A DNA stretch of 64,000 nucleotides, taken from Octopus vulgaris. Its lineage: Eukaryota. Positions 1,246 to 56,948 of the stretch are shown here, one piece after another (within the stretch, counting starts at the first letter, position 1; every line of letters starts with the position of its first letter). The translations under genes and the position numbers were made by a program. The notes beneath the pieces were generated by a model. That model ran no database searches, was not told where the DNA came from, and saw only the letters and a program-made list of their open reading frames with translations. Where the stretch lies: assembly GCA_951406725.2 (NCBI GenBank), contig OX597842.1:32612001-32676000 (forward strand), written 5' to 3'.

Positions 1246-1665
1246 AACAAAGTGGAGTTGTAGGGTACCTCACGAGTGGAATTATATACGAAAGAAGGTT
1301 TGAAAATGCAATTTGAAAAGATGTTATTTACTTTACCGGTTTCACTCTTTGGAAAAAGTTTGTCAAAAGTAACATGTAGAAGTTTGGTTGCGTTAATTAT
1401 TGGTTGTTACAAAATGCTACATTACGTATATACAGTCTTTGGTAACAAGGACATAAAAAAGTTTAACAAGTTCCTTAAAATATTGGGCACAAAAGATTAC
1501 CACATAAATAATCATTCTCAAGAACATGTTAAAGATAGTTTCCAGAAGGAATTATTAAAAAGTTCAGTGGGATATTGGTATTGTATCTGTATATTCAAAG
1601 AGTGAAACCGGTAAAGTAAATAAACATCTTTTAAAATTGCATTTTCAAACATTCTTTCGTATATA
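1246..1665. mobile_element. Penelope-like pseudo-LTR fragment with inverted duplication
   Basis: Flanked by (TA)n; ~69-bp inverted arms 1283-1351 / 1596-1665 containing GAAACCGGTA (hammerhead 3' half with palindromic stem III); second copy starts at 56218. Confidence 0.55.
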
Positions 1666-1696
1666 TATATATATATATATATATATATATAACCTC

Positions 1697-1990
1697 TCAG
1701 CGACCATCTTCCTGAACAGCTTGTAAATATGAGACCAGGAGGCAGATAGGAAGATAGTTCTCCAGATCTTCCTTGTCGCCCTTCTTGTACAGCAAGTTCG
1801 TATTCGACTCTTTCCATTGAGAAGGTCTCGACCGTTTCTCTAGATAACGGTTGAAGCGTAGAGCGAGGAATTTGCACAGCTGCTCTCCCTCGGCCTGCAG
1901 CATTTCAGATGTTACGTCGTTTTTGCCCGGTACTATCCCTTTGTTCATCAGCTTGAGGGCTCTCCCGACTCCGCTGGTCAGAATAGTACT
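1697..1990 (-). pseudogene. Non-LTR retrotransposon (RTE-like) reverse transcriptase N-terminal fragment
   Basis: Translation ...ALKLMNKGIVPGKNDVTSEMLQ...WKESNTNLLYKKGDKEDLENYLPICLL matches the LINE RT domain 0-1 motif (K.PG.D.+..E...W....++KKG....NYRPI.LL). Confidence 0.85.
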
Positions 1991-4900
1991 TCCTCTCCTT
2001 CGCTTTCCATCATCATCGTCATCACCACCACCACCATCATCATCATCATCATCATCATCATCATCATCATCATCATCACCACCACCACCGTCATCATCAT
2101 CATCATCATCATCATCAGCTTCGTCATCACATGTCATCATCATCACCACCACCACCACCATCATCATCATCATCATCATCATCATCATCATCACCACCAC
2201 CACCACCACCATCATCATCATCATCATCATCATCATCAACTTCATCATCATCATCATTATCATCATCACCACAACCACTACCACCACCATCCTCCTCCTC
2301 CTCCTCCTCTTCCTCCTCCTCCTCCTCCTCATCATCATCACCACCATCATCATCATCCTCCTCCTCCTCCTCCTCATCTCCACACTGATAATCATCATGA
2401 TCATGTTCGTCATCATCATCATCATCACCACCATCATCAACAAGAACCTCTTCCACCACCGCCAACACATTTCTAATCAGAGCCAAAACAGCAAACATCA
2501 CGACCACCACCACCACTACCACCACCACTACCACCACCACCACCACCACCAATACCACAACAACAAACAACGCCATCTACCTGTACGTTCGCTATACTAT
2601 ATCATCTGTTCGTCATACACCTATACCTTCAACCACAACCACAACCACCACCACCACCACCACCAACACCATCCACAACCACCATAACCACGACAAAAAC
2701 AGCCCGCCATAAATGCCACAATAATTCACCAATTTGGGTACGTGCCACCAAATCAGGTGGAAAAAAAGGAACCTATTTCATTAGGATGTGTGGCCGATGG
2801 TGCGGAGGTACGAGGAAGCGAGATCGATTGTATACGCGGAAGAGGCATGTAAAGAGAGGAGGGACTGGTCGGGAGTAAAAATAATGTGTGTAGACCCCCG
2901 CACACCACCCCCGTCGACGTATTTTGATTGCATTACATATTGTTTTCTTGGAGAATATGTCTCACGTGATGTGGTATGACGTTGTGGTGGTGGTGGTTGT
3001 GGTGAGAGTAATGGTGGCGAGAAGATGCGACATAAATATTTGCGTATCATATATATGTATATATATATGTATATATATATATATGTATATATATGTATAT
3101 ATATATATATATATATATATATATATATATGTATGTCTGTATATATATGTATATGTATATGTATACATATATATATACCTGTACATATGTTTATATATAA
3201 GTATATATATATATATATATATATATAGGTGCACATACACATAAACAGCCATATAAAACACACACATACACACACATATATGCATATGCATGCATATATA
3301 TATGTATGCATATACAATCATACTACAAATGGATATTGATATATACGTACATACAAATACCTGTGAATAAAAGATATATGTATATATATGTGCGTATATG
3401 TATATACTTACATATATATACATATATAAATACATATATATATGTATATATATATGGATATATATATATATATATATATATATATATATATATATATATA
3501 TATATATATATATATATATATATATATATATATATATATATATATATATATATATATATATATATATACACATATATATGCACATATATATTATGTAGTC
3601 TTTTAGCATTGGTACATATAAGTTATATGCGCAAGAAAAGTTGAATTCTCGGCAATCTCCATGGACCTGATGTTGTGGCCTAAATGCTGTTTCCAATAGG
3701 CTCAAGGGAAATGCTCCGTTTTTGTGGAATCAAATCGTTGACATAATGCTTTGGTTTTAGGAAGCAAGCATGAATATGATTTTAATATATTTTGTATATG
3801 CGTGTGTGTATACGTGTGTGTGTGTATCACGTGTGTGTATGTACACGCACATGTGGGGGTATGTATACGTATGTATATATGCGTGTGTTCTCATTATATA
3901 TAGTTAAATATGCATTCATGTATTTATATAATTGGGCACATTTGTATATATTTGTGTATATATATATATATATATATATATATATATATATATATATATA
4001 TGCATATATCTATGAACATACAAAAATTCTATCTATCTATCGATATCAATATCTATATCTATTTATATATATATATATATATATAATATATATATATATA
4101 TATATTTATATATATATATATATATATATATATATATTTTTTATATATATATATGCATGTATATATATATGTATATGTATGTATACATATATGTATATAT
4201 ATATATATATATATATATATATATACATATATATACACACACACATACATAGATATAGATAGATAGAGGGATAGATAGATAGATAGGTATAAATACACAC
4301 ATACACACAAACACACACACATATATACATATAGGTTTATGTGCATACTCACGTGTATACATCCGTCTGTGCTTTTGTAAATGTGTAAGTCTTTCTCTGT
4401 CTGTCTGTCTGTCGCTCTATATGTATATATATATATATATGTATGTGTGTGTGTGTGTGTGTGTGTGTGTGTATGCATGGATGGATGTGGAGATGTAGAG
4501 CAGATATGAGTCAAAACTGGAATCGATAAGCAGATAGATAAATATGATATCATTTCAAGTATGTTTGTCCATGTGTGAGTGTGCATAGGTATATACGCAT
4601 GTGCGTGTCTGTATATATATATATATATATATATATATATATATATATATGTACGTATGTATATGTATGTATTCATATATATATATGTATACCTATATAT
4701 TCATATGTGTATATGTATACATACATATATATATATATGTATATATGTACGTATGTATATGTATATATATATGTACATAAATATATTTATATATATTTCT
4801 GTATTTATATTTCTACATACATATATATATATAAATATATATATATATATGTGTGTGTGTGTGTATATATTTATACTATATATTTATTTTTTTAATATAA

Positions 4901-55720: not shown

Positions 55721-55916
55721 GTTTGTCCCCCCCCACCAACATCACTTGACAACCGATGCTGGTGTGTTTACGTTCCTTGTAACTTAGCGGTTCGGTAAAA
55801 GAGACCGATAGAATAAGTACTAGGCTTACAAAGAATAAGTCCTGGGTTCGATTTGTTCGACTAAAGGCGGTGCTCCAGCATGGCCACAGTCAAATGACTG
55901 AAACAAGTAAAAGAGT
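55721..55916 (+). mobile_element. SINE family A 3' half
   Basis: Matches the tail consensus. Confidence 0.8.
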
Positions 55917-56438
55917 ATGTATATATATATATACATACATACATTATATATATATATACATACATTATATATATATATATATACATATACATACATACAT
56001 TATATATATATATATATATATATATAATGTATATATATATGTATATATATATATATATATACATATATATATATTGTTTTATGAGTTCATGCCAGGTGGC
56101 TGTGGTCATGTTGGAACACCACCATAATGAGGATTTACGGCCATTCGTATATATATATATATATATATATATATATATATATATATATATATATATATAT
56201 ATATACATATATACATATACGAAAGAAGGTTTGAAAATGCAATTTGAAAAGATATTTATTTACTTTACCGGTTTCACTCTTTGGAAAAAGATTGTCAACA
56301 GTAACATGTAGAAGTTTGGTTGCGTTAATTACTGGTTGTTGCAAATTGCTACATTACATATATACAGTCTTTGGTAACAAGGACATGTTAAGGACATAAA
56401 AAAGTTAAACAAGTTCCTTAAAATATTGGACACAAAAG

Positions 56439-56722
56439 GGTAAAGGGTAAAGACCCCCTTCGGTCATGACTGACCATGGGATTGCACCTAGAAAGTTACC
56501 CTCCTAGACACAAGTCTGGGCAAGGTGGTTTATGGAAGACCAGCAGTCGCCCATGCATACCAGCCTCCCCTCTCCACGCCACCAGTGTTATCCAAGGGGA
56601 AAGGCAAAGGGGCCGATACAGCTTGGCACCAGTGTCGTCGCAACTCATTTCTACAGCTGAGTGAACTGGAGCAACGTGAAATAAAGTGTCTTGCTCAAGA
56701 ACACAACACGCAGCCCGGTCCG
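56439..56722 (-). mobile_element. 5'-truncated SINE with (TTTACC)-type tail and 11-bp TSD
   Basis: TSD GGACACAAAAG at 56428-56438 / 56723-56733; empty site visible in the paralogue at ~1486-1495; TTCTTGAGCAAGACACTTTATTTCA segment shared with 57590-57665. Confidence 0.8.
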
Positions 56723-56948
56723 GGACACAAAAGATTACAACATAAATATACATTCTCAAGAACATGTTAAAGGTAGTTTTCAGAAGGAATTATTAAAAAG
56801 TTCAGTGGGATATTGGTATTGTATCTGCATATTCAAACACGCACAGAATATTGGTTGACACAGAGTACTACTATACATATATATACATTGTTTAGTGACG
56901 AGAGCATGTTAAGAACATAAGAAAGTTTAAATTATCTTGAGAACGTAT

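Follow-up and report, generated by a model that had tools for sequence, protein, structure and literature searches.

The window analysed here, a stretch of 64,000 nucleotides (nt) of the Octopus vulgaris genome (assembly GCA_951406725.2, contig OX597842.1, positions 32,612,001 to 32,676,000 of the forward strand; positions below count from its first letter), holds many AT-rich islands set in (TA)n runs, most with a hammerhead ribozyme (HHR) motif or a part of one. An earlier note, made from the sequence alone, had described these islands as separate short elements of about 8 families. Our analysis leads to another view: we hold with high confidence that they are the truncated 3' ends of longer Penelope-like elements (PLEs) inserted in (TA)n, carrying the whole or a part of a hammerhead that is predicted to cut only as a dimer and is likely silent in most scattered copies. 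Ten families were counted (A to D and F to K), of which B and G are sisters. The islands measure 125 to 630 bp, rather than the 150 to 600 bp given previously, with a GC content of 0.29 to 0.45. The preference for TA runs proposed in that note holds: (TA)n is mostly present on both sides, and on one side only, in clean form, for the family D island and the first copies of families I and K.

The labels Hydra-type and Neptune-type used below are candidate clade assignments, for which the evidence follows. At the left end, the family A insertion (1247 to 1659, minus strand), a Neptune-type PLE 3' end, consists of a main arm with a tail of about 40 nt at 1247 to 1288 and an inverted short arm at 1596 to 1659; its full type I hammerhead (1328 to 1372, minus strand) has the U3-A8 core UUGACAA, which recurs in the family A copies inspected, and the stem III ACCGGU. 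A second family A copy (56206 to 56945, minus strand) has the short end, is split by an unrelated repeat at about 56435 to 56722, and bears a U3-A8 motif at about 56260 to 56304 with a stem I mismatch. The Hydra-type family B insertion (9841 to 10148, plus strand) begins with an inverted short arm (9841 to about 9920), in which a 3' half of the motif lies at 9878 to 9889, and continues with the main arm and a tail of about 95 nt; its long-stem-II hammerhead (9932 to 10017, plus strand), with 59 nt between the core boxes, differs from intact family copies by G5U. Next to it, the Hydra-type family C insertion (10209 to 10587, minus strand) has a long tail and an intact hammerhead (10427 to 10512, minus strand) with a 55-nt stem II arm and the stem III ACAUGUGU, and is followed by the family D insertion (10602 to 10790, minus strand), whose hammerhead at 10710 to 10751 carries U4C and G12A and is predicted to be inactive; GAAAC is present in 16 of 18 parsed copies of this family.

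The Hydra-type family F insertion (18851 to 19428, minus strand) has a main arm running from 19273 to 18851 and an inverted arm at 19274 to 19428; as the main arm starts inside stem II, only the 3' half (19238 to 19253) remains of a family motif whose stem II arm is 100 nt long. A very short two-armed insertion of the same family (32470 to 32594) consists of a tail arm and a short arm, with no hammerhead. In the Hydra-type family G insertion (19849 to 20143, plus strand), the inverted arm bears the tail, of about 115 nt, and the main arm stops at the short end; its intact hammerhead (20020 to 20108, plus strand) has a 60-nt stem II arm and the stem III ACAAUUGU. Minimal hammerheads are found in family H (24716 to 25215, plus strand, with a Neptune-type endonuclease (EN) upstream; motif at 25080 to 25117, with the family-wide A6U core CUGUNGA) and in two minus-strand copies of family I (25584 to 25800, motif at 25685 to 25719 with a U4C core; 33606 to 33795, motif at 33701 to 33735 with A13U). 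Family K is represented by about 1.25 units of a 358-bp retrozyme-like repeat (25801 to 26246, minus strand), with a hammerhead core at 26008 carrying G8A, and by a two-armed insertion in (TA)n (51628 to 51938) that ends before the hammerhead. Finally, the family J fold-back insertion (31760 to 31990, plus strand, Hydra-type EN) is a hairpin of about 79 bp followed by a tail of about 70 nt, and harbours within the hairpin two intact hammerheads on opposite strands (31776 to 31826, minus; 31854 to 31904, plus).

These motifs exceed chance expectation. Against a first null model of 60 block-wise dinucleotide shuffles of the window, a strict descriptor found 4 full motifs for 0.27 ± 0.44 in the shuffles, and 9 3' halves composed of GAAAC and a palindrome of at least 6 nt for 0.85. 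A variant-core descriptor, tuned on this window, recovered 7 intact hammerheads for a mean of 0.025 and a maximum of 1 in 40 shuffles; its independent test, 400 kb sampled elsewhere in the genome, yielded 23 matches against 0 in each of 10 shuffles. The intact cores lie at 1366, 10506, 25715 and 31820 on the minus strand and at 20025, 25085 and 31860 on the plus strand, that is, 4 and 3, respectively. Canonical CUGANGA / GAAA / UH cores with three stems are those at 10506, 20025, 31820 and 31860, and variant cores those at 1366 (U3-A8), 25715 (U4C) and 25085 (A6U). Mutated motifs are present at 9936 (G5U), 10745 (G12A), 33731 (A13U), 26008 (G8A) and 56298 (stem I mismatch), the first four of which depart from the type I core.

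Six of the eight motifs originally listed as full, at 10427, 20018, 25080, 25685, 31776 and 31854, are thus intact, whereas those at 10710 and 33701 are the G12A and A13U copies. Similarly, the supposed 3' halves at 1604, 9878 and 19238 are genuine partial copies, but those at 1335 (a full U3-A8 motif), 56266 (the same family, with a mismatched stem I) and 10002 (a complete long-stem-II motif bearing G5U) are full-length variants, and the minus-strand G8A motif at 26008 had been overlooked. In an Rfam search of the window, no hammerhead family reached its gathering score, and the best 150 of 811 matches by E-value were nearly all microsatellite-driven miRNA matches. Two CUGANGA matches, at 9750 and 19571, were discarded, as inspection by eye revealed no hammerhead; the latter belongs to another repeat.

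To examine how the islands are built, each family was searched in the genome, with 388 to 2,443 first-look candidates for A, G, J, I, C, F and D and 37 for H, and at most 40 candidates scored per search. The two-armed copies follow one plan: a (TA)n run is followed by an arm that is truncated and inverted, then by a forward arm, also truncated, which extends through the hammerhead to a fixed 3' end, and by (TA)n again. Each family has two alternative fixed 3' ends, the stretch between them (40 to 170 nt) being the PLE tail. Among 19 family G and 18 family C loci, 18 are two-armed, and the tail is on exactly one arm in all 18; over six families, exactly one tail-bearing arm was counted in 42 of 43 two-armed loci, although the presence of the tail in the J, A and F queries biases this count towards loci with one tail or more, while still allowing two. 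Pseudo-long terminal repeats (pLTRs) with a partial-tandem or inverted 5'-truncated copy, a feature of EN-containing (EN+) PLEs, are present. The sister families B and G are 79% identical in their tails and 71% in their reverse transcriptases (RTs), and families C and G are young, with 97 to 99% identity among best-matching copies. As a side observation, the A, F, J, B and G tails share AC-rich YWMAAYCCC motifs, which recall the AC-rich stem-loop at the initiation sites of the Poseidon element PAc.

Could the islands instead be non-autonomous elements of fixed length, such as miniature inverted-repeat transposable elements (MITEs) or retrozymes, amplified as units? Their terminal inverted arms do resemble the terminal inverted repeats of MITEs, many family J copies are hairpins of about 230 bp, many family I copies begin near one 5' site, and family K repeats every 358 bp and is similar to a tandem array. 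However, junctions vary between copies, the arms are unequal with the tail on one of them, and island lengths run continuously up to copies bearing open reading frames (ORFs), which refutes this explanation for B, C, F, G and J. The MITE interpretation was rejected on account of the variable junctions and unequal arms. So was unit amplification of the J palindrome: its fold-back junction is different in each of 20 loci, and its hairpins are therefore independent events. Amplification as units would hold for K only and is very unlikely as a general account.

As judged from sequence, nine of the ten families could be traced to PLE RT and/or EN sequence, some via sister families or a single locus, which bears out the Penelope-like origin put forward initially. 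RT and EN are both linked to G, B, C, F and a sister of A (in which RVT_1 scores above the Pfam cutoff), the EN side only to H, a sister of I, and J, and the RT only to D. The most complete case is locus L039, a near-full-length family G element in which RT and EN lie between an inverted 5' pLTR and a 3' pLTR with tail; its RT, used as query, gave 11,370 candidates, of which 121 were scored, with many open frames of 840 to 1,090 amino acids. The family B copy of the window is 84% identical to the pLTRs of an RT-bearing locus (L048), and RT and EN are flanked by two family C pLTRs in L252. For family F, no ORF was found in 20 + 25 short loci, and the link appeared only after longer fetches (RT and EN upstream in L321; EN in L319, L320, L322 and L325). 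Family J follows a Hydra-type EN and a long low-complexity untranslated region (UTR) in L262/L256; in L327, one of seven longer loci, the family D pLTR is followed by a decayed Hydra-type RT. In tandem copies, the motif is about 200 nt upstream of the ORF start.

Because Pfam did not recognise the Hydra-type ORFs, they were identified through motifs. G and its relatives have RIRW(K/R/A) and ADKTG, with CxCx5C in L044, L054 and L046; SDKTS and CNCRNRDEC occur in F, and CNCPDKTTC in J. C and D were placed by RT similarity (47% and 34% to G). From these RWK, DKT and CxCX5C motifs, and from pairwise identities within this genome, six families are assigned to the Hydra type. Their ORFs have Asn-rich insertions and belong to subfamilies whose RTs are about 90%, 85% and 63% identical to that of family G; to judge by their sequences, these PLEs look recently active. 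Families A, H and I would be Neptune-type, a clade marked by GxKF and DKG and by a CX2-5CxxC linker ahead of GIY-YIG, Neptune and Nematis being taken together. The sister of A (88%) flanks an RT and GIY-YIG ORF in L247 with GLKF (GLKFTP), ADKG (ADKGS), YLDD, Cx4CxxC (CGRPNCKTC) and GIY-YIG; H lies directly downstream of a GIY-YIG ORF with a CPRCRTC linker in L256; and the sister of I (75%) is joined to a GIY-YIG ORF through a CA-rich UTR in L249, the Pfam scores of the latter two ORFs being below cutoff. A second Neptune-type family, with the U3-A8 core UUGAAAA and near-complete ORFs, was seen in L248, L250 and L254, its protein being 59% identical to that of the family A sister. Several PLE families also have TA/TG- or CA-rich low-complexity 3' UTRs of 1.5 to 2.5 kb (L256, L249, L013, L046), so that a part of the microsatellite-like DNA of this genome travels with PLEs.

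No RT or EN was linked to family K. Its 358-bp period and its likeness (68 to 69%) to a tandem array of about 359-bp units in L142 make it look retrozyme-like; the retrozyme-like origin suggested at first would apply to K, and not to the other nine families. This two-armed array (L142:2150-4900; C1, 20.00 Mb) holds seven canonical hammerheads, five on the plus and two on the minus strand, and its plus arm starts a few bases from a predicted cut site. A re-wired, non-circularly permuted hammerhead was considered for K and rejected, the motif being of ordinary type I.

To assess abundance, exact patterns were counted over the 2.8-Gb genome and compared with reversed-pattern controls. The long-arm pattern CUGAHGA-N48-72-GAAACRNNYGUA has 22,303 matches (control 80) and its N73-103 version 5,156 (control 139), making about 27,000 together; U3-A8 cores number 9,710 (control 131), and the CUGUNGA pattern of family H 19,610 (control 0). 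The H/I 3' core (20,418, control 22) overlaps this last count. Three non-overlapping motif classes alone thus provide about 56,000 exact matches. In the 400 kb sampled elsewhere, forty 10-kb stretches taken at round-number positions, the 23 motifs correspond to 58 per Mb, which extrapolates to about 1.6 x 10^5 motifs per genome (Poisson 1.0 to 2.4 x 10^5), or 1.1 x 10^5 without one 7-copy array; no such figure was found in the literature searched. The dense and diverse motif population announced by the earlier note is therefore real, and the window, at 109 per Mb, has about twice the average density. It is also rich in (TA)6+ runs (231 per 100 kb, against 99 in the 40 stretches sampled elsewhere), and about 39% of it is masked as short-period repeat. 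Rfam and short-loop descriptors miss the long-arm class, so hammerhead counts in such genomes are underestimated. Totals of this size are also met in the axolotl, whose genome is far larger.

What RNA structure do these motifs adopt? Among 30 matches of the long-arm pattern, which demands no pairing, stem III is self-complementary in 27, as expected for the palindromic, dimer-type stem III that had been proposed, and stem II has at least 3 bp in 25, compared to 147 of 830 swapped-arm controls. The long inserts fold as single irregular hairpins, with a median z of -2.7 relative to mononucleotide shuffles and 34 of 55 below -2. In 15 B/G-related sequences, hand-picked from these 55, covariation extends over stem I, stem II and the palindrome of stem III, and over a distal 7-bp hairpin: 92.4% of cells are paired (30 to 53% in slid controls), 12 of 22 pairs have two-sided changes, and the score was reached by 0 of 500 shuffles. 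The long stem II arm of the Hydra-type families is a conserved RNA structure. Most likely, it would act as a docking or protein-binding element of the transposon ribonucleoprotein. A covarying stem II arm of 45 to 110 nt was not found in the literature searched, of which coverage was incomplete.

Concerning family H, U6 is fixed and N7 takes all four bases. Free variation of N7 is seen in the CUGUNGA register only, and the alternative register UUGAAGA was rejected for this reason. Statements on published work refer, here and below, to individual passages and files of the papers cited. Natural A6C, U4C, U3-A8 and U10.1-U11.1 hammerhead variants are already published; an A6U core was not found among published natural variants, nor in the passages of Cervera and de la Pena 2014 containing 'CUGU' (PMC4209133), and Lunse et al. 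2017 or supplements may describe A6U cores or long arms. Changes at A6 lower hammerhead activity (PMC3088659 and PMC7151607, passages on A6C), and a fixed-A6U family has reached at least 19,610 copies. This raises the question of whether the main reason for keeping the fold might be a role in protein binding or translation of the PLE RNA, catalysis being dispensable. The position of the motif ahead of the ORF start would suit such a role, and HHR mutants of PAc still insert (PMC11167929); yet the core boxes and the C3-G8 or U3-A8 pair are conserved across many families with diverged stems, which fits selection on catalytic geometry. We regard this explanation as rather unlikely.

The further suggestion of the note, that any pre-mRNA running through the region might be cut up by these motifs, finds no support. 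In the B/G-related sequences, the innermost pair of the palindrome would join adjacent bases, so that it forms between two molecules only; as a monomer hairpin, stem III has a free energy of 0.0 in 6 of 8 folded motifs, against -1.7 to -14.9 kcal/mol as a self-duplex. In the A, B and J insertions, predicted long hairpins cover the motif on either strand (-159 kcal/mol in J), five copies are mutated, and same-strand copies that match in stem III lie, at their closest, 8 kb (one of them mutated) and 55 kb apart. Efficient cutting of a spanning pre-mRNA is therefore unlikely, pairing in trans or help from a protein being possible.

It would nonetheless be conceivable that dispersed copies are active ribozymes cutting read-through pre-mRNA, with selection for strand bias or a regulatory use of the cuts. 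Seven of the motifs in the window are complete in core and stems, two of the families (C and G) are young, about 10^5 copies could supply trans partners, and Xenopus retrozymes are depleted from introns (bioRxiv 2026.07.22.740005). On the other hand, stem III requires a family-matched partner, fold-back arms are predicted to sequester the motif, five copies are mutated, the intact motifs are almost evenly split between strands, and published minimal HHRs have no monomer activity and low dimer activity (PMC4209133). The hammerhead of PAc cleaves only with the PLE protein (PMC11167929). We consider active dispersed ribozymes highly improbable. In the truncated-PLE interpretation, most scattered copies are likely silent because the predicted cutting needs two copies paired via palindromic stem III.

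The following mechanism may be proposed, on the model of PAc. The PLE protein would nick both strands of a TA run, and cDNA would be primed at two RNA sites, one per strand, giving one arm with and one arm without a tail; the use of two start sites, one per strand, would account for the one-tail rule. Synthesis would usually stop early, and head-to-head joining of the two cDNA arms would yield a fold-back. In a tandem source copy, two pLTR hammerheads might dimerise via stem III, perhaps assisted by protein, and trim the unit RNA at a site some 200 nt before the ORF begins. This trimming role is uncertain, since PAc HHR mutants still insert and no reads end at the cut site. Assembled contigs from four putative RNA runs cover the family C copy, but do not resolve ends or strand and provide no evidence either way.

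Several observations weigh against the interpretation as a whole. A contiguous stem I of at least 4 bp is present in just 12 of the 30 long-arm matches (11 of 830 swapped-arm controls), the covariation sequences are related and were tested against a structure obtained from their own alignment, G, I and K show low probabilities for stems I and II when folded as monomers, and the 4-bp stem III of family J could form within a monomer. A and I are linked to PLEs through sisters (88% and 75%) and D through one decayed locus, while H, I and J are linked on the EN side only. In PAc, HHR mutants were without effect on insertion in vitro, and no RNA-seq reads end at the cut site (PMC11167929).

Other repeats are interspersed with the islands. 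A very abundant two-part repeat, similar to short interspersed elements, occupies 503 to 925 and many other sites in TA/TG runs, and a repeat of about 185 bp forms tandem arrays at 29480 to 30350 and 52977 to 53650; no hammerhead was seen in either. The short element at 19430 to 19655 has its own inverted ends and resembles a Tigger-type MITE, and the D-linked ORF of L327 is broken by an element of a similar kind. Fragments at 45518 to 45769 and 47369 to 47668 resemble a Tc1/mariner transposase and the ORF of an RTE long interspersed element.

Altogether, what we describe is known PLE biology at unusual density, plus two variants, the long stem II and A6U, not found in the literature searched. 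A bolder proposition, possible but tentative, is that this ranks among the densest known populations of hammerheads (about 10^5 copies), with a new subtype in the Hydra-type PLEs whose conserved stem II arm of 45 to 110 nt docks the dimer or binds the transposon protein, family-specific stem III palindromes acting as self-recognition codes, and the spread of A6U revealing that fast cleavage is dispensable. If true, a family of about 20,000 copies would demonstrate this dispensability for PLE mobility. Dozens of families, with their arms, palindromes, A6U cores and open ORFs, provide a natural panel for the open question of the role of PLE hammerheads, on which one can test how specific the dimers are, whether the protein assists and whether cleavage is needed. 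The rule of one tail per two-armed insertion, for its part, offers in vivo support for the two-start-site model of PLE reverse transcription.

The closest known relatives are the EN+ PLEs of the Hydra clade (Craig et al. 2021, PMC8557442), including Hydra-1_Obim, which have the same RWK, DKT, CxCX5C linker and C-terminal EN, the same (TA)n targets, a pLTR hammerhead, inverted 5'-truncated copies and a tail at one end. They differ in loop 2, which is 3 to 10 nt long in the 26 Hydra HHR rows of File S2, compared to 55 to 100 nt between the core boxes in B, C, F and G; in that file, loops of about 30 to 35 nt occur in two spike-moss PLE-X elements only. The elements described here are also longer, G exceeding 4 kb, their ORFs have Asn-rich insertions, and their tails reach 95 to 170 nt, against a described 30 to 40 bp. 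The minimal HHRs of metazoan PLEs (Cervera and de la Pena 2014, PMC4209133) share the palindromic or absent helix III, the extra base after A9, the U3-A8 variant, the many families per genome, mostly as single truncated copies, and the opposite-strand pairs 100 to 700 bp apart, but number about 2,000 to 9,000 per genome, whereas three classes alone supply some 56,000 exact matches here. PAc (Frangieh et al. 2024, PMC11167929) has the same AT-rich targets, both strands nicked and extended, and two RT start sites defining the tail, and its HHR is inactive without protein; its ORF starts inside the HHR, whereas here it starts about 200 nt downstream of the motif, and the rule of one tail per two arms comes here from counts over genomic copies. 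Animal non-LTR retrozymes (Cervera and de la Pena 2020, PMC7229834; Li et al. 2026 bioRxiv) are like family K in being protein-free units, of about 358 bp in K, with a type I HHR; none of the other nine families consists of short units in tandem. Finally, more than 6,000 HHRs are reported in a coral and 126,247 of type I in the axolotl (Li et al. 2026 bioRxiv), the latter total being similar to the 1.1 to 1.6 x 10^5 motifs estimated for the octopus.

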